A DNA stretch of 32,000 nucleotides from Pirellula staleyi DSM 6068 (GCA_000025185.1 CP001848.1:5970001-6002000), one strand, 5' to 3'. Shown: positions 18,303 through 30,013, counted from the stretch's first letter. The notes: a model not told the origin generated them from the sequence alone. Program-made: numbers and translations.

Positions 18303-19739
18303 ATGCTTCGACAACTTGCAATCGCTCTGTTTGGCACGGCGATCTTAGCGACCATGCTCTCTAGCGCTGCCCACGCTGCGCCGCGCAATATCGTCGTGAT
18401 TGTGGCCGACGATCTTTCGCCCGATCTCGGCTGTTATGGCAACCAAGTGATCCAGACACCGCACATCGATGCCCTGGCGCGCGAGGGGACTCGGCTGACC
18501 GATGCGATGTGCACTACCGCCAGTTGCTCGGCCAGCCGCAGTGTGATCCTGACCGGCATCCACAACCACGCCAACGCCCAGTTTGGTCACGAGCACGCTT
18601 ATCACCATTTCCGGGCCTACGACAACATCAAATCGCTCCCCGTTTTGCTCGCCGCCAAAGGCTATCGGACCGGCCGGATCGGAAAGCTACATGTCGGTCC
18701 TCCCGAAGTTTTCAAATGGGAAACCAACCTCACCGGTCCCGAGCGAAACCCGGTGCAAATGGCCGAAAATTGTCGCAAATTCATCACCGAGCAGAGCGAC
18801 AAGCCGTTCTTTTTGTACTTTGCCACCGCCGACCCCCACCGCAGCGGCGGCGTGGTGAAAGATCATCCCGAACAGCCAAACGAGTTTGGCAATCGCCCCG
18901 CAGGTTACCCCGGGGTGAAGGAAGTCACCTACAAGTCTGAAGAGGTGATTGTGCCGCCATTTTTGCCCGACAACGGAGCAGCACGTGCCGAGTTGGCGCA
19001 GTACTACCAAAGCGTATCGCGCGTCGATCAAGGGGTCGGCAAACTCGTCGCAATACTGAAAGAAGCGGGGGTGTACGACGACACGCTGATCCTCTTCACG
19101 AGCGATCATGGAATTGCGATGCCAGGTGGCAAGACCACGCTCTACGATCCTGGGATGCGAGTCCCCATGATTTTGCGAGGCCCCGGCATTCCCGCCGCGC
19201 CAGCAGGGAGTGCCGCTGGACGCTCGAGTTCGATCATGGTTTCGCATGTCGACCTCACCCCGACGCTGCTCGATTTTGCAGGGATCGATCTCGCGCAGAC
19301 CGATGTACAGGGACGTTCGTACCTCAAGGCTCTCGCCGAGGAGAAACCGGCCGCTTGGGACGAAGTGTATGCTTCGCACACGTTTCACGAGATCACGATG
19401 TACTACCCGATGCGTGTGGTGCGCGGTCGGCAGTACAAACTGATCTGGAACATCGCGGGGCCACTCCCCTTCCCGTTCGCTAGCGATTTGTGGGCGGCAC
19501 CCACTTGGCAATCAGCCTATAAGCTTGGCCCCAGCGCGCTCTATGGCAAACGAACCGTCGACAATTACATCCACCGCGACACCTTCGAGCTCTACGACAT
19601 CGAGTCTGATCCCGACGAAGTCCACAACCTCGCCGCCGATCCCAAGCACGCAGAAACTCTCGCCAAGCTCAAAGCGAAGCTCAAAACCTTCCAAGAAAAA
19701 ACCAAGGACCCTTGGATCCTGAAGTGGGAGTATGAGTAG
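18303..19739 (+). CDS. Cys-type sulfatase (N-sulfoglucosamine sulfohydrolase-like)
   Basis: The signal peptide is MLRQLAIALFGTAILATMLSSAAHA. NIVVIVADDL is present. The active-site block is CTTASCSASRSVILTG (C-x-A-x-R variant of the formylglycine motif). GKLH and TSDHG are also present. Confidence 0.9.
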   Translation: MLRQLAIALFGTAILATMLSSAAHAAPRNIVVIVADDLSPDLGCYGNQVIQTPHIDALAREGTRLTDAMCTTASCSASRSVILTGIHNHANAQFGHEHAYHHFRAYDNIKSLPVLLAAKGYRTGRIGKLHVGPPEVFKWETNLTGPERNPVQMAENCRKFITEQSDKPFFLYFATADPHRSGGVVKDHPEQPNEFGNRPAGYPGVKEVTYKSEEVIVPPFLPDNGAARAELAQYYQSVSRVDQGVGKLVAILKEAGVYDDTLILFTSDHGIAMPGGKTTLYDPGMRVPMILRGPGIPAAPAGSAAGRSSSIMVSHVDLTPTLLDFAGIDLAQTDVQGRSYLKALAEEKPAAWDEVYASHTFHEITMYYPMRVVRGRQYKLIWNIAGPLPFPFASDLWAAPTWQSAYKLGPSALYGKRTVDNYIHRDTFELYDIESDPDEVHNLAADPKHAETLAKLKAKLKTFQEKTKDPWILKWEYE

Positions 19740-19789
19740 GAAGGGGCGGGAGGCGAGGGAGGCTAGGCTATCCCATGGCGGGGCAAGAA

Positions 19790-21090
19790 TTAATTTGATT
19801 AGCTCGGCCAGCCTGTGGCGGGGTGTCGTAGGCACCAGAAGTCTACTATTCGTTGCTATAACAATAAATTCTTGTCAAATCAGTCATTGTCACGACACGG
19901 CCCGCCAAACTGTGACCATATCAACCTACAGAAACTACAAATCTATGTCATCTGACAATGAAAATAGTCGACTTGACTCTGAGTGGGTAACATTGAACGC
20001 TGTGCGAGAGCTAGTCCGAATGGCCACTAAAGGAGATAGTAGCCAAAGCACTTATGAGCGGGCCCTAGAATTTGGTGCAGTGATTTGCCCGAAGATACTT
20101 GGGCCAGATGTAAGCCTTATTAGACTACATCGCGAGAGCGACACAGCAAGAGAATTTAGGCAACGGGCAATCGCAATGACCCTAGAGTCTGGCGAGAATG
20201 TGGAGCCAGTCGAACTACTTGACCAAGCAATCAATGAACTTCGCAAGCTACAAAACACTGCCAAAGACTATAAAAACAGTACTGACGGCTTAAAGCGACG
20301 ACTTCACGAACTAGAAAAGGCCAAGAGTGAGATCGCTCCACAGGAACATTCGGAACATGAGATTATCTTTCGCGATGTTTACAATATTGAAAGAAAAGTT
20401 CCGGAAATTGGACGAGAGAAGTCTTACCGTGACTTTCGACTCCCCGACGATAACATACTTCGAATACGCGTTTTTCATCCAGACAAACCAGAGCATATAA
20501 GTGGGGCAGATATCGTCTACGAAAAACATCATCCGTCAGAAGAGAAAGCGACTATCGCGGCAATTCAGTATAAAATATGGGAAGATAAAACATTATATTT
20601 GAACGATACTCGCATGAAAGACCAGCTGGCCAAACTAAAAAGTTTCACCTGCGATAAGAACACTTGCGTTGCCAATTCTACGGACCATTCCTTTCGTTTT
20701 CCATTTTGCGCCAGCTTCCTTCGCCCCACTGACCGCCTACAACTTCCAAACCAAAAACTAATTTCGAGCGGAGAACACATTCCGATTTGCCAGATAAATG
20801 CAGTCAAATCAACTGGTCCCAAGGGCGCTGAGTGCCTAACTTACGCCAACATCAGAAAAATGTCACTTTCGCACGAAGAGTTTGAAAGCCTTTTCTCTAC
20901 AGGAAAAATTGGTTCCCGCACGCTGACATACACTGAACTGCGTGAGCTATATGAAGACATTCCTGAATTATCGAATTCCAATCGGCTCTTCATTCACGTG
21001 CAGGATTTTGAATCGGCATTCGATAGCCAGCCCACCTTTTTCGACACATGACTTCAACTAACTGATGCTCAGTGTTCTACGCAACTTTCG
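19790..21090. other. Low-GC islet (sampled lines about 35-50 % GC versus about 60-65 % in flanks) containing a single orphan gene
   Basis: The compositional break is visible by eye at about 19790 (aattaatttgattag...) and about 21090. I saw no integrase, tRNA or convincing direct repeats. Confidence 0.5.
19945..21051 (+). CDS. Hypothetical protein; helical N-terminal half plus C-terminal PD-(D/E)xK (Mrr-like D...QxK) nuclease-fold candidate
   Basis: I chose ATG 19945 (MSSDNENS...); the track extends to 19732 through GC-rich non-homologous sequence. The core is ILRIRVFHPDKPEHISGADIVYEKHHPSEEKATIAAIQYKIWE, read as strand, then a strand ending in D, then a strand with QxK. Codon usage is AT-rich. 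Confidence 0.6.
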   Translation: MSSDNENSRLDSEWVTLNAVRELVRMATKGDSSQSTYERALEFGAVICPKILGPDVSLIRLHRESDTAREFRQRAIAMTLESGENVEPVELLDQAINELRKLQNTAKDYKNSTDGLKRRLHELEKAKSEIAPQEHSEHEIIFRDVYNIERKVPEIGREKSYRDFRLPDDNILRIRVFHPDKPEHISGADIVYEKHHPSEEKATIAAIQYKIWEDKTLYLNDTRMKDQLAKLKSFTCDKNTCVANSTDHSFRFPFCASFLRPTDRLQLPNQKLISSGEHIPICQINAVKSTGPKGAECLTYANIRKMSLSHEEFESLFSTGKIGSRTLTYTELRELYEDIPELSNSNRLFIHVQDFESAFDSQPTFFDT

Positions 21091-24618: not shown

Positions 24619-25359
24619 TTAATTCAGACTCGCCAGATCGGCGAGGTCGATGACGCAGACATCTGCGGTACGCCGCAACTGGCGGATGATCTGCTGCTCG
24701 CACGAGGGGACAACGTGCAGATGAAACGGACGTCGCTGCGAGATGCGAAGTCCTGTCGAGAAACTCACTTGCAGCCGCTCTGCCGGGGTGAGTAGTTCCA
24801 AAGCGCCGCTGAGAAGTCCCTCGACATCGTCGTCGGCAACCAGCACCACCTGCGCTCGACCGCGAAGCAGCGTGGCCAATTGCTCCATCGGCTCTTCCCC
24901 CCACAGCGCGCGGCATTTCGCGATCCGATCGGCGGAAGTTCCAGCCGCACTCCCCACCAGCCGAAAGCTCAGCAGCGTGTCGGGCAGATGAGGATCAACC
25001 ATCCAGCGCCCCGATGCGGCCACCGCTTCGAGGACCAGCAGCGGATGATTGTCAAACCGCATCATCCCCTCGCGCGGCAGGACGAGAATCTGCGAATAGA
25101 TCCGTCCACCTCCTCGTCCGCTGTACTCGCTCCCATTGCGGGTGGTTAGCGACAGGACAAAATGTTCGCTGCCGAGTGGGTGAAAGTTCACGCTGGTCGC
25201 TTCATGCACGTCGCTGATGAGCGAATCGTGCGCGGGGCCCCAGATCGAAAGCTCGCGCGCCATTTCGCTGGTGATACCACGACTGGCCCGAGCGAGTTGA
25301 TAGCCTTCGCGTTGCTGCTCGGCTACCGACGTAAAAATTGCCTGCTGAACCACCATCAT
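24619..25359 (-). CDS. Hypothetical 246-aa protein, putative GTPase partner (N-terminus reminiscent of GTPase-associated GAP1-N-type domains)
   Basis: It is the last gene of the four-gene cluster. The N-terminus VVQQAIFTSVAEQQREGYQLARASRGITSE resembles the Q-x-x-[YF]-T-S...G[YF]Q..A.S.G signature I recall for GTPase-associated proteins. No catalytic motif is evident. Confidence 0.6.
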   Translation of the reverse strand: MMVVQQAIFTSVAEQQREGYQLARASRGITSEMARELSIWGPAHDSLISDVHEATSVNFHPLGSEHFVLSLTTRNGSEYSGRGGGRIYSQILVLPREGMMRFDNHPLLVLEAVAASGRWMVDPHLPDTLLSFRLVGSAAGTSADRIAKCRALWGEEPMEQLATLLRGRAQVVLVADDDVEGLLSGALELLTPAERLQVSFSTGLRISQRRPFHLHVVPSCEQQIIRQLRRTADVCVIDLADLASLN

Positions 25360-25448: not shown

Positions 25449-26354
25449 CTAGTTCGCAATTTCATCGAGCAGCCACACAAACGGCTCTGTGACGCCGCGG
25501 GGTTCGATGCGTAGCGGCACATGCACACGGCCACGACCTTCTAAACGATAGCCGCACGCCCCGGCCACGCCGGTCGCAAAAAACCGGTGTCGCTTCAGAC
25601 GTTCGCGACACTGCTGAAAGAGCCCAGGGGTATGCCGCTTTGCAAAAGCTTGCGGATCGTGGAAGCAATGTTCGCAAAGGTCGGCCTTCGTGAAGATCAG
25701 CGATACGGGCCGATTTTGCCAACCACTTTTGGGGTCGTTTTGCAACTCACACAGATAGCTGATGAGCTTCATCGTGTGAAAGTCTTCGTCGCTCTGGCCG
25801 GATTCCACTCGAGGCGCATCGATCAGCACCATCACGCCGCTGCAGCGCGACAAAAAGGCCTTCACTACCGGATAGGTATTGGGATGGTCGACCTCTTCGA
25901 GCAATGCTTCACCCGCAAGATCGGGCATGATCAGTTCGATCGGATTGCGGCGTCGGCGAAGTACTTGGCAGTGCGTCCAGTTCCAGCGATCAGGTTCGTT
26001 CGGGGTCTTCGAGGGAAATTCGCACCTGGCGAGTGATGCCATCACATGCTGCTGTAGTGCGATCGAAAATGCCCCTCGGGCGAGCAATTGCAGCGGTTCT
26101 ACTTGACGCGACAACATGTCGGTCAGCATGCCGAGATACACCGTTTTTCCCGCACCCGAAGGACCGATGCAGGCCACCATCCGGGGATGGATTTTCTGCG
26201 AAGTCGCTTGATAAGCGAGCGCCATCGGCGCTTGGCAATGCCGACAGAGTTCCGCGTCGAAATTGTTCCCGCCGCCACAGATGTAGCAGGGACAGGCCAC
26301 GGTGTACTGCGCCAGTCGATACGAATCCATCGCGAGTGTGCCAGTGGTTCTCAT
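25449..26354 (-). CDS. Zinc-ribbon-fused P-loop GTPase (TRAFAC-like)
   Basis: The N-terminal CPCYIC...CRHC provides four Cys as CxxC...CxxC. G1 is GPSGAGKT, G3 is MPDLAGE (DxxG) and G4 is FTKADL ([NT]KxD). The ATG at 26354 overlaps the upstream stop in ATGA. An alternative start is M9 at 26330. Confidence 0.75.
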   Translation of the reverse strand: MRTTGTLAMDSYRLAQYTVACPCYICGGGNNFDAELCRHCQAPMALAYQATSQKIHPRMVACIGPSGAGKTVYLGMLTDMLSRQVEPLQLLARGAFSIALQQHVMASLARCEFPSKTPNEPDRWNWTHCQVLRRRRNPIELIMPDLAGEALLEEVDHPNTYPVVKAFLSRCSGVMVLIDAPRVESGQSDEDFHTMKLISYLCELQNDPKSGWQNRPVSLIFTKADLCEHCFHDPQAFAKRHTPGLFQQCRERLKRHRFFATGVAGACGYRLEGRGRVHVPLRIEPRGVTEPFVWLLDEIAN

Positions 26355-27586
26355 ACGTTCTGTTCCTCAGGGCTTTCGATGGACAACTCGCTGCTTGCAC
26401 CACTGTCACTCGCTCCGGTGGTCACTACATCGACAAAGCCAAGCGCACAGCGAAAGCCGATATTATGTTTCCGCGCAAGCGGCCCTTCGCCACTCTGAAA
26501 CTGACAGTGCGACTGACTATCAAAATAGGTATCGAACGCTCCGCCACGAATGCTGCGAAGTGGCGAACCTGTTTCAATTTTCTGCCCTACCGGTTCGAAC
26601 GCACCAAATTGACTACTTGTCCATTCCCAAACATTACCGATCAGTTGCTGCACACCACCGACACTCGCCCCTTCGGGATGCGAATGAACAGGAACTGTGG
26701 CATCGGGTCCACTCCCCCAGAGATTGGCGAGTCGACGATCGAGCGCTTCGCCCCAAGGATAGCGGCGTTGCACCGGCACCTTCGCATCGGTGAGCACGGG
26801 CCAACTGCCAGCCTTCACCCATTCCGGATCACTAGGAAGCCGCTTTCCTGCCCAGCGGGCATAGGCCGAAGCCTCATACCAACTGATGCCAACCACCGGG
26901 TGATCTTGCTTGCCAAGCTCGTAGTGCCCGCCACTCCAAAAGCGAGGGCCAGGCTGATTGGTTTTGTCGACAAATCCGAGGACTGCTGGCCAGATCGACT
27001 CATCCCACAGCGACATTTGCTCGTAGCCACCGTCGCTCACAAACTGCTGATACTCGGCGTTGGTGACCGGATAGCGATCGAGAAAGAAACCGTCGACATG
27101 CACGAGTTTTTGCCCGCGATGCTGTTCGTCGTCAGCAAGTTCATCGAACCGGCGAGAGCGCATCATGACGGGGCCTTGTGGAACCACCGACATCGCCTCG
27201 TCGAGCGCCGACTGAGCGATTTCGATATGCCGCGCCGAGAGGCTGCTCGCAATCTGCGGGCGTAGTAAAATGGTGTAACGACCTTGCGTGAGCATCCCCA
27301 GGACGAGTTGCGAGGTTTCGTCGTCCCCAAGTTCAGCAGCGAGACGTTCCCACTTCTCGCGCGACGCGCGGGGATCGGCAGCCACCACTTTGTTCGGCGT
27401 ACTGCTAGTGGAACTTGGATGCCCACGAAATCGACGGAGCGGCTTTTGTAGCGCGAGCAGACAGAGCCCGGTTGCTGCACCGGCGGCTCCCAGCGCCCAC
27501 TGGTCCGACGTCAAACCATAGGCCAGACAGGCTGGCACCGTTGCACCGAGGGCAACGCTCGTCGCGCTGGGCAGCTTGAGAGGCAT
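26351..27586 (-). CDS. Membrane-tethered FGE-sulfatase (SUMF1/EgtB/PvdO-type) domain protein
   Basis: Two N-terminal hydrophobic segments are followed by the basic QKPLRRFRGH. The C-terminal domain reads FFLDRYPVTNAEYQQFV...HPVVGISWYEASAYARWAGKRLPSDPEW...RRYPWG...IGNVWEWT...IRGGAF...NIGFRCA. Confidence 0.85.
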   Translation of the reverse strand: MPLKLPSATSVALGATVPACLAYGLTSDQWALGAAGAATGLCLLALQKPLRRFRGHPSSTSSTPNKVVAADPRASREKWERLAAELGDDETSQLVLGMLTQGRYTILLRPQIASSLSARHIEIAQSALDEAMSVVPQGPVMMRSRRFDELADDEQHRGQKLVHVDGFFLDRYPVTNAEYQQFVSDGGYEQMSLWDESIWPAVLGFVDKTNQPGPRFWSGGHYELGKQDHPVVGISWYEASAYARWAGKRLPSDPEWVKAGSWPVLTDAKVPVQRRYPWGEALDRRLANLWGSGPDATVPVHSHPEGASVGGVQQLIGNVWEWTSSQFGAFEPVGQKIETGSPLRSIRGGAFDTYFDSQSHCQFQSGEGPLARKHNIGFRCALGFVDVVTTGASDSGASSELSIESPEEQNV

Positions 27587-27655: not shown

Positions 27656-28969
27656 CTACTTCTTTTTATTGCGACGCTGAGCGACATCTTTTTGGAGCTT
27701 GGCAAACTGGGCCATCACGCTGCTAACGACCGGATCGCTCGCTGGAGTCGAATCCGAAGTCGACGCGGGACGTGGTGGTTCACTCGCGGGTAGCGGTGCA
27801 CTTTGAGGCCGATTTTCCGCGACGAAACGCTGATCGCCGGGCCTCGCCTCCTCGACTTTCGGTGCGGCAGTTCGACTCTCGAAGCGAGTGATCTCGAACC
27901 GCGATGGTGGCTCGTCGGCAACTCGTGCAGCAGCGGCTGCAGTGGCTGCTGTGCTCGTTCCAAAATGCGAAATCGTTCGGCCCAACTCGGCCCCGGTGAG
28001 GGTGGCATGCACTGAACTCGCCGGGATCGACATCGCTGGCGTACTCGACGATTCATAGCGCGACGCATCCTGCTGCTCGATCATGGTGCGTAGCTGCACC
28101 AGTTCGTCGCGCAGCTGAGCTCGATCGCTCTGCAAATCGCGCCGCTGATGTTCCACCGTCTCTTGCAGTTCGATTGCGCGGGCTCGCACCAAGGCAAGTT
28201 CAGCCTCGAGTGTTGCCCGCTCTTCATGCCAGGCGAGAGTCCCTTGCAGCTGCTGCGTAATTTCAGGAGGAAAGACTTCCGCCACTGGCATCGCTTGGCG
28301 TTCGGCCATGCCACTGGCCACCTGAGCACGCGTTTCAGCAAGCTCGCTGCGCAAGTGCGCCAGCTGTTGCTCCAAGGGACCGAGATTGATCGGCGCTGGC
28401 TCTTCTCGACCACTCGAACGAGCAATCTCTTGACGCAGCGAAAGAATCTCGGCCAGCAACGGTTCGAGCGCTTGATCGGGAATCTCCCCACCGCTGCTGG
28501 CTTGCATCGCCGCGCGGAGTTCCATTTCCTTGGCATGCTGCTCGCGCTCGGCTGTGGTAGCGGCCAGTTGTTCGGCCAACTGCATCCGCAACTGCTCTTC
28601 TCGCGAGAACGATTGTTCGCGGAATGCTGCGAATTCACTTCGCAAACTACGGAGTTCCGAGAGGGCATCGCTCAGCTGCGCCTCTTGCTGTTCAAGCTGA
28701 TGCGCCTGGCGACCACTTTCGACCCGCTGCTCCGACAGCTGTCGGCTGCGATCGGCCAAATGGCGTCGCGCTTCCTCCAGTTGCTCGCTGCGAAGCTGCA
28801 GTTCGTTCTCGAGCCGCTCGAGATCGCCATAAAGCGATTCGATCATGAGGTCGAACTGATGGCATTCGTTACCAAGTTCAGCGGCGACCTCTTCAAGACG
28901 ACTGGTGTGTAGCGCCAGTGGAGTTGAAGTGATCGACGTCGATGGCAATGCCTGGATGCTTGCTGTCAC
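27656..28969 (-). CDS. Long coiled-coil protein with Ser/Thr/Pro-rich linker and basic C-terminal tail
   Basis: 437 aa with a GTG start at 28969 (the alternative is the internal ATG at LMIESLY). About 280 aa are Q/E/L/R/A-rich heptad-like sequence (LERLENELQLRSEQLEEARRHLADRSRQLSEQ...). A low-complexity region follows, and the protein ends VMAQFAKLQKDVAQRRNKKK. Confidence 0.65.
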   Translation of the reverse strand: MTASIQALPSTSITSTPLALHTSRLEEVAAELGNECHQFDLMIESLYGDLERLENELQLRSEQLEEARRHLADRSRQLSEQRVESGRQAHQLEQQEAQLSDALSELRSLRSEFAAFREQSFSREEQLRMQLAEQLAATTAEREQHAKEMELRAAMQASSGGEIPDQALEPLLAEILSLRQEIARSSGREEPAPINLGPLEQQLAHLRSELAETRAQVASGMAERQAMPVAEVFPPEITQQLQGTLAWHEERATLEAELALVRARAIELQETVEHQRRDLQSDRAQLRDELVQLRTMIEQQDASRYESSSTPAMSIPASSVHATLTGAELGRTISHFGTSTAATAAAAARVADEPPSRFEITRFESRTAAPKVEEARPGDQRFVAENRPQSAPLPASEPPRPASTSDSTPASDPVVSSVMAQFAKLQKDVAQRRNKKK

Positions 28970-29545
28970 GGTCGGTTGTCCTGTGGGGGGAACTTCGAAC
29001 GAGCCGTGAGTGACAATGCGGGAAGCCGTTGCCTATCGATTCCCGATCGATACGCGCACTAACTGCACTGCCACTACTGCGGAGAGAAATTTGGCTAACC
29101 GTGATCACTTGCCGCACGACTGTCAGCAGACTTACGTCCGCCGTTCCACATTCCTTCTGCCAGCTTCCGAGGTGTGCCCCGAGAAGCTGTCAGACGGATC
29201 AGTCGGCTGCGAGCGTTTCCTCGGCGAGCCAGCGAGCGACAGCCTGTCACCCGCAACGCAAACGTAGGTCGAAAACCTCCGAGAGGCAAATCCCGATCTC
29301 AATTCAGTGCATTTCCCCCAAACCTCGCAGTTTGATGCGCAAGGGGGCCGATTTTCACTTTTTCTCCCAGAGAGGTAAAAACGTTCATACCCTGCAAGCT
29401 GTTTTCTGACAGTGACTTGCGCTTATCAGGCTATCTGGGAGGGTTAGCGAGGTCTTGCGGATCGGGAAAGTTGTGTCAAATTTACCGGCACCTGAAGCTA
29501 TCCGTTGTGGTTGCTCTCGCCATCTGTCCTACCCGACTGGAGTCA

Positions 29546-30013
29546 ATGATGACTGCCCACCTGACCGCTCGCACCATGAAATTCGTTCTCGCCATCACCG
29601 CTGTGGCTGCTCTGCTCGTTGCTGCTGGCAACGTCTCGGCCGCAACCGCTTCGCTCAACACAGCCAAGCTCGCCGGCTGTGGTTGCGAACCCGCACCTTG
29701 CGTTAAGTGCGTCCCCACCAAGGAATGCTGCGATCGCTGCATCACCTATCGCTCGCACACCCTGCTCCGTTGCAAGTTCAAGTGCAGCCCCACCGAAAAG
29801 ATCGTCCTCCAAGTGACCGATCCTTGCTGCTGCTGCTTCATCAACGTCCCTGTTTGTGTCCCTTGCTGCTGTGCCAAGGAAGCTCCTGAAGTTTGCACCC
29901 ACTGCGGTATCCTCGGTCGCACCGTCACCGAATACACCTGGTGCTGCGGCTACAAGGTGAAAGTGATCATCGATCGCTGTGGCGACGTCACCGTTCACAC
30001 CTACGGCCTGTAA
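29546..30013 (+). CDS. Secreted, extremely cysteine-rich small protein
   Basis: ATG 29546 is preceded by GGAG; the alternative is ATG 29576. The signal peptide is MKFVLAITAVAALLVAAGNVSA. All 22 Cys lie in the mature part, including DPCCCCF and VPCCCAK. A hairpin plus T6 lies about 70 nt downstream. Confidence 0.7.
   Translation: MMTAHLTARTMKFVLAITAVAALLVAAGNVSAATASLNTAKLAGCGCEPAPCVKCVPTKECCDRCITYRSHTLLRCKFKCSPTEKIVLQVTDPCCCCFINVPVCVPCCCAKEAPEVCTHCGILGRTVTEYTWCCGYKVKVIIDRCGDVTVHTYGL

Follow-up and report, generated by a model that had tools for sequence, protein, structure and literature searches.

Which family does a planctomycete GTPase with a four-cysteine ribbon at its N terminus belong to, and what would such a protein do in the cell? 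The question is raised by one gene of Pirellula staleyi DSM 6068, which we analyzed within a stretch of 32,000 nucleotides of its genome (GCA_000025185.1, CP001848.1:5970001-6002000), referred to here as the window. A first-pass annotation, made from the DNA alone, had read the gene as a small GTPase outside the classical families and had proposed that the ribbon tethers a molecular switch to nucleic acid or to protein. Reading of the DNA together with the alignment of homologues confirmed the open reading frame, its CxxC pairs, and its GPSGAGKT, DLAGE, and TKAD motifs. The frame runs uninterrupted for 301 codons, and its ATG start overlaps the stop codon of the upstream FGS gene (ATGA; the DNA reads GTATGA), with GAGGA nine bases 5' of the ATG. 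The genes and motifs are listed in Table 1.

Table 1. Positions of the module genes and GTPase motifs in the window, and of stand-alone GAP1 C-terminal-domain genes at loci of family f11
Feature	Position	Strand	Basis or remark
GAP1 gene, 246 aa (GAP1-N2 + GAP1-M; short form, C-terminal domain missing)	24619..25359	-	downstream of the GTPase gene
Zinc-ribbon DO-GTPase gene (P0001), 301 aa	25449..26354	-	ORF, Pfam, AF2 model, fold matches
Zinc ribbon, residues 23-40, CxxC-x10-CxxC	26235..26288	-	conservation, AF2 model
G1/Walker A GPSGAGKT, residues 64-71	26142..26165	-	conservation, DNA read
FPSKT, residues 113-117, candidate G2/switch-I T117	26004..26018	-	conservation, position
G3/Walker B DLAGE, residues 145-149	25908..25922	-	conservation
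G4 TKAD, residues 222-225	25680..25691	-	conservation, DNA read
FGS gene, 411 aa, FGE-sulfatase fold domain	26351..27586	-	upstream of the GTPase gene; Pfam FGE-sulfatase 150 bits
Coiled-coil protein gene, 437 aa, first of the cluster	27656..28969	-	conserved C-terminal tail
Stand-alone GAP1 C-terminal domain, f11	L047:10384-10740		
Stand-alone GAP1 C-terminal domain, f11	L048:10383-10742		
Stand-alone GAP1 C-terminal domain, f11	L049:8995-9351	-	
Stand-alone GAP1 C-terminal domain, f11	L050:10624-10992		

Judged from an alignment of 56 full-length GTPase homologues (27-82% identity to the query), the conservation of the motifs and the ribbon is well past chance level. The four zinc ligands C23, C26, C37, and C40 are each present in 56/56 sequences. 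The motifs that contain them are CPCYIC (residues 21-26) and CRHC (residues 37-40), and because C21 of the former is found in only 11/56 homologues, the ribbon reads C23-x2-C26 ... C37-x2-C40; its two pairs are separated by 10 residues and not by 11 as originally counted. Residues 1 to 20 contain no further Cys or His pair, so a second ribbon is absent, and a profile search of PDB sequences gave the ribbon region a weak likeness to RanBP2-type zinc fingers. In G1, G64, G69, and K70 are invariant (56/56 each) and T71 is Thr in 53 sequences and Ser in 3. G3 retains D145 in 56/56, G148 in 54/56, and E149 in 41/56, whereas G4 retains T222 in 47/56, K223 in 55/56, and D225 in 53/56. Across the alignment the DLAGE and TKAD positions are conserved rather than variable, as the GTPase reading demands. 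The switch-I threonine had to be reassigned. T127 of WNWTHC (residues 124-129), which had been put forward for this role, is kept in 2/56 homologues only, whereas the FPxxT motif is nearly invariant (F113 in 55/56, P114 in 56/56, T117 as 53 Thr and 2 Ser). Since T117 precedes the strand at residues 125-133 of the predicted model, we consider it the better candidate for G2 and switch I. Further signatures of the family are the invariant W124 and W126, and also D179.

A search with Pfam placed the protein in a family that is already described. It matches DO-GTPase1 with 48.3 bits and, over residues 58-250, DO-GTPase2 with 45.3 bits (PF19975 and PF19993; cut-off 27) and belongs, as a single-copy protein with one zinc ribbon, to the DO-GTPases, a bacterial clade of TRAFAC GTPases. 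As the first-pass annotation had held, it lies outside the translation, Era/Obg/Der, Ras, and MglA families: no Pfam model of these, nor of Arf or Roc, was matched at E <= 1, weak P-loop matches apart. The novelty that had been implied for the fusion of ribbon and GTPase did not stand, because the fusion is a defining feature of the DO-GTPases. The family was defined computationally in 2020 by Kaur, Burroughs, Iyer, and Aravind in eLife, with a conserved glutamate in Walker B as its hallmark, and about 60% of its members bear one or two N-terminal zinc ribbons, the GAP1-N2 systems "usually" two (PMC7159879). According to the same work, a GAP1 gene typically lies downstream of the DO-GTPase gene, two paralogous GTPase genes occur in 38% of the systems without being obligatory, and an FNIII-repeat component belongs to the GAP1-N2-type systems. 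Two planctomycete subtypes were named: an "FGS + DO-GTPase + GAP1-N2" arrangement and a second one that comprises a DO-GTPase2-like protein, GAP1, and a GYF-pair protein (PMC7159879).

The family, the zinc-ribbon fusion, and the operon type are thus all catalogued. In the literature searched, the 2020 paper alone was returned and no experimental work on a DO-GTPase or GAP1 was found; NCBIfam holds no family for either protein, and when the GTPase was searched by profile against PDB sequences, no relative with a solved structure came up, the best matches (E 0.003) being P-loop or zinc-finger fragments. Relatives are plentiful: a word-indexed search of 5.8 billion proteins returned 1325, the best 120 of which are 64-96% identical and all carry both DO-GTPase Pfam domains, and 308 clusters were found at E <= 0.001 when 1.84 billion cluster representatives were searched exhaustively. 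Several close homologues are named by NCBI as Pirellulaceae. What is new is that the module is single-copy, syntenic, and apparently vertical in roughly one half of the order's genomes, that its GAP1 is truncated, and that the fold of GAP1 is predicted to be longin/DENN-like.

The module consists of four co-directional genes, which encode a coiled-coil protein, the FGS protein, the GTPase, and GAP1. The GAP1 gene begins 89 bp downstream of the GTPase gene, and its product matches Pfam GAP1-N2 with 65.4 bits and GAP1-M with 37.8 bits. In all 30 loci compared, which come from many families, FGS, GTPase, and GAP1 follow one another in this order on a single strand. The most conserved gene of the cluster is that of the GTPase. 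Its products share 58-78% identity with the window protein; the corresponding ranges are 47-64% (FGS) and 34-46% (GAP1). The 4-bp ATGA overlap between FGS and GTPase is retained in 9/19 further loci, and this gene pair is often translationally coupled. One or two N-terminal hydrophobic segments are present in 15/19 FGS orthologues, and the N terminus of the window's own FGS has none above the threshold. The coiled-coil protein belongs to no Pfam family and gave only weak SMC/Rad50-like coiled-coil matches. Its C-terminal 25 residues, DPVVxSVMAQFxxLQ plus basic residues, are strongly conserved, and the motif is encoded directly upstream of the FGS gene in 11/20 related loci; this tail might serve as a peptide for docking or, being amphipathic, as an anchor in the membrane. 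A scan of the cluster for promoters and terminators revealed nothing above the shuffled expectation. Overall, the genomic context is membrane- and protein-oriented and gives the proposed nucleic-acid tethering by the ribbon no support.

Divergent from the cluster, a small cysteine-rich protein of no family is encoded at 29417-30013 (+) of the window. It adjoins the module on the opposite strand in 11/20 related loci and may be linked to it or simply syntenic.

To describe how the module is distributed, we counted it among genomes of the order and of the phylum. One strong GTPase match is present in 101/198 good genomes of the order, with all sampled genomes positive in some families and none in others, and a sample of 300 further genomes from the phylum, nearly all of them outside the order, gave two weak partial matches only. 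The genes that often flank the module across families (19-kb stretches in 20 genomes) are carA, an aminotransferase gene, and a LutB-like gene, and the GC content of the module equals that of its flanks. When taxonomic families were mapped onto a maximum-likelihood tree built from 41 GTPases, 17 changes of label were required, where 15 is the lowest possible number and shuffled labels averaged 29.4; such clustering can also come from near-copies. No strongly supported branch demands more than one origin per family. Taken together, the module is apparently a vertically inherited, dispensable chromosomal module, unlike a mobile defence island. As a clock for comparing rates, carA was tried and rejected; its identity is flat across the order, at ~67-73%.

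The GTPase is a single copy within the cluster. A second DO-GTPase system is found in the same genome, 4.6 Mb away (C1:1371707-1379667; L057:8708-16668); it consists of a DO-GTPase2-like protein, GAP1, and a GYF-pair protein and contains the only other GTPase match of the genome.

We favor, with rather better than even confidence, a DO-GTPase switch that works with GAP1, FGS, and coiled-coil partners in signaling or assembly close to the membrane or envelope, over a role against phage. The published view is different, since all DO-GTPase/GAP1 systems, including the planctomycete FGS subtype, were assigned to conflict systems (PMC7159879). Under that view, GAP1 or FGS would sense an invader molecule, and the GTPase would set the threshold and release an effector. 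Consistent with this, roughly every second genome of the order lacks the module, a patchiness that defence genes also display, and the genome of P. staleyi contains the second planctomycete subtype as well. However, no toxic effector is recognizable in the cluster by Pfam, and PADLOC has no defence model for the GTPase, GAP1, or FGS and registered the coiled-coil protein as coiled-coil noise only. Moreover, the FGS proteins differ in how they vary. In other FGS proteins one segment is varied by diversity-generating retroelements; here the proteins are 47-64% identical and that segment, which contains the single Cys described below, is nearly invariant, so that no diversified surface is offered. 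The position of the module beside housekeeping genes is fixed across families, its composition is like that of its flanks, and the GTPase tree is compatible with vertical descent. A syntenic and apparently vertical module does not fit the picture of a diversifying conflict system. We therefore consider an anti-invader role unlikely, and the only alternative of real weight. The cell-biological switch is rated somewhat above it because the module occurs as a single copy in a syntenic position, has a native composition, and apparently descended vertically, because its FGS is conserved, and because the GTPase, GAP1, and FGS gave no PADLOC match and no toxic effector is recognizable. Against the switch we count that E149 differs in 15/56 homologues.

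The tight coupling of the GTPase gene to a gene of FGE fold at all loci examined, in a sulfatase-rich organism and with a sulfatase gene ~6 kb away in the window, could also be explained by a nucleotide-dependent helper of the FGE-like protein, for example a GTPase for metal delivery or maturation that serves sulfatases. Formylglycine-generating enzyme has a pair of catalytic, copper-binding cysteines in its C-terminal loop. The FGS protein of the window and the orthologues examined have a single Cys in this place, between RGG and GFRC, which speaks against FGS being a true formylglycine-generating enzyme. In addition, known metallochaperone GTPases, those of the G3E family, fall into the SIMIBI class, but the GTPase studied here matches Ras-like TRAFAC GTPases in fold, and the sulfatase gene lies outside the conserved neighborhood. 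A helper function is very improbable on these grounds.

The structural model of the GTPase reveals a compact domain that resembles small GTPases. AlphaFold2, run with the 56-sequence alignment, gave a pLDDT of 91.3 and a pTM of 0.88, with the ribbon region at about 91-93. The top matches in a Foldseek search of the PDB were Rab32, Arl2/3, Der, a Rag-like Asgard GTPase, Sar1, Ral, and MglA. Likewise, in an independent structural alignment against representatives, the best 50 VIA-align matches were all GTPases (Z 13.7-16.8), including Rab32 (Z 16.8, 171 residues, 3.0 A) and RagD (Z 16.5), while YcjX gave the longest alignment (231 residues). These searches returned GTPases only, in agreement with the TRAFAC-type assignment of the first-pass annotation and with a placement outside any ATPase clade. 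The predicted fold is that of a small GTPase with conserved G1, G3, and G4, and the motifs and the fold together predict the use of GTP rather than ATP. A P-loop ATPase of the ABC or AAA type with coincidental look-alikes of G3 and G4 is hardly credible and was rejected on fold and motif conservation, since the weak Pfam, NCBIfam, and PDB-sequence matches to ABC, AAA, and SRP P-loops cover the Walker A region only and fall far under the cut-offs, whereas the G3 and G4 positions are conserved and no AAA or ABC ATPase is among the best 50 VIA-align matches or the Foldseek top matches.

The model and the Ras superfamily (Rab32, RagD, Rab28, M-Ras, and Arl; PDB 4cym, 2q3f, 3e5h, and 9c1b) would share the core fold, at Z 16-17 over ~170 residues and ~3 A, as well as G1, G3, and G4 in canonical order. 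However, the identity is just 10-20%, and the Pfam Ras, Arf, and Roc models are not matched. G4 is TKxD (TKAD, with Thr in 47/56) in place of the NKxD of the superfamily; TKxD is also the G4 form of dynamin. The catalytic Gln that follows DxxG in the Ras superfamily is a Glu here. Finally, three elements of the AF2 model are additions to the Ras-like core: the zinc ribbon, an insert of strand and helix that spans residues 88-109 and is helical at 96-109, and a long beta-hairpin near the C terminus, at residues 262-286.

The architecture of GAP1 differs between families. In most of them it has 420-535 aa, with N2 and M followed by a linker and by a conserved helical domain at the C terminus, whereas in the genus of the window and the two nearest genera it has 246-286 aa and ends after GAP1-M. 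No detached copy of the C-terminal domain was found in the window's genome. The converse arrangement occurs in one family of the order, f11, where the ORF after the GTPase encodes 118-122 aa that correspond to the GAP1 C-terminal domain alone (hhalign probability 98.2%, E 4e-14; Table 1). In f11, GAP1-N2 was found at other genomic sites only or was not found, and never beside the GTPase. Since f11 does without GAP1-N2/M next to the GTPase, these domains cannot be an obligatory regulator; GAP1 is modular, and the invariant core of the module is FGS plus GTPase. The two truncations are complementary, the lineage of the window keeping N2 and M and f11 keeping the C-terminal domain.

The AF2 model of the 246-aa GAP1 had a pLDDT of 88.8. 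In the ESM Atlas it matched GAP1 clusters of several phyla (TM 0.7-0.84), and a profile search of PDB sequences matched no solved chain. The best solved structure matching both lobes was DENND1A from its complex with Rab35, with Z 8.0 over 209 residues and an rmsd of 4.8 A, which lies in the tool's zone for possibly a common arrangement. Next came TagF (Z 7.7), DENND10 (Z 7.6), and DENND1B (Z 7.3; Foldseek E 2.8e-4, probability 1.00). The N-lobe alone matched the longin domains of Lst4, FNIP2, GATOR1, and SMCR8/C9orf72 and one Lokiarchaeal longin. A d-DENN lobe is missing from GAP1. From these models, a likeness of GAP1 to longin/DENN regulators of GTPases is probable, although the scores lie close to the limit below which the tool sees no meaning in a match. 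DENN, longin, and roadblock are not mentioned in the 2020 paper (PMC7159879), and no link between TagF and DENN was found in the literature searched, so TagF stands as a structural match only.

We also predicted the complex between the GTPase and GAP1 in the presence of GTP and Mg. The score was 0.59, compared with 0.37 for the best control, and the verdict was weak support. The mark used was reached by 58/80 solved complexes and 2/110 mismatched pairs; among those at the mark, scores of 0.60 or less belong to only 7 of the 80 solved complexes and to both passing mismatches. The runs agree in at least 90% of the contacts, and the partner pLDDT is at least 85.

The arrangement of the two genes recalls the MglA-MglB, Rab-DENN, and Rag-FLCN pairs in that a small GTPase is encoded beside a putative regulator that is predicted to be longin-based and two-lobed. 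It differs from these pairs in that GAP1 has no detectable sequence relationship to their regulators, reaches a Z of only 8.0, and is without the d-DENN lobe, and in that GAP1-N2/M are dispensable in one family of the order.

A mechanism along the following lines would agree with the favored reading of a membrane- or envelope-proximal switch. The DO-GTPase would alternate between GTP and GDP, and GAP1 would set its nucleotide state; being two-lobed, with a predicted longin and DENN-core-like architecture as in regulators of Rab, Rag, and Arf, it would work either as a GEF or as a GAP. The zinc ribbon may provide a rigid docking surface for a protein partner rather than a reader of nucleic acid. 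The output would pass through the coiled-coil scaffold and through a non-catalytic binding domain of FGE fold that appears, in most orthologues, to be anchored in the membrane. Of the overall interpretation given by the first-pass annotation, this keeps a GTPase outside the classical families with its ribbon and drops the novelty and the switch-I threonine.

It is conceivable, and in our judgment doubtful, that DO-GTPase and GAP1 are the prokaryotic counterpart of the eukaryotic small-GTPase/DENN pairs and that the module in the Pirellulaceae-containing order is an ancestral, vertical, membrane-proximal cell-biological switch and not an immune one. If this were true, bacteria known for elaborate membranes would carry a control module like that of Rab and DENN, and eukaryotes would not be the sole inventors of DENN-type architecture. 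If GAP1 is DENN-like and the module has a housekeeping role, the label of conflict system would need revision for this branch, and the module would bear on the origin of the eukaryotic GTPase regulators.

Compared with the planctomycete system of Kaur et al., the module has in common the Pfam matches above cut-off, the TRAFAC fold, the Glu in Walker B, the N-terminal ribbon, the GAP1-N2 gene directly downstream, the FGS-domain gene, and a planctomycete host. It differs from the published systems in having one GTPase instead of two, one ribbon instead of the usual two, a GAP1 without the C-terminal part, and an FGS domain that is conserved rather than variable; Pfam gave no FNIII match for the genes of the cluster and of its flanks. 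The architecture here is minimal, with one GTPase, one ribbon, a short GAP1, and no FNIII protein. Because it also has a conserved partner of FGE fold and comes from a complete genome, it is a convenient target for the first biochemistry and structure of a DO-GTPase, and it represents, in clean, minimal, and well-conserved form, a system so far predicted by computation.

Elsewhere in the window, a 439-aa ORF without a Pfam match (19732-21051) is covered by a stretch of low GC content at 19600-21000, where the value is 0.44-0.50, compared with ~0.57-0.60 in the flanks.
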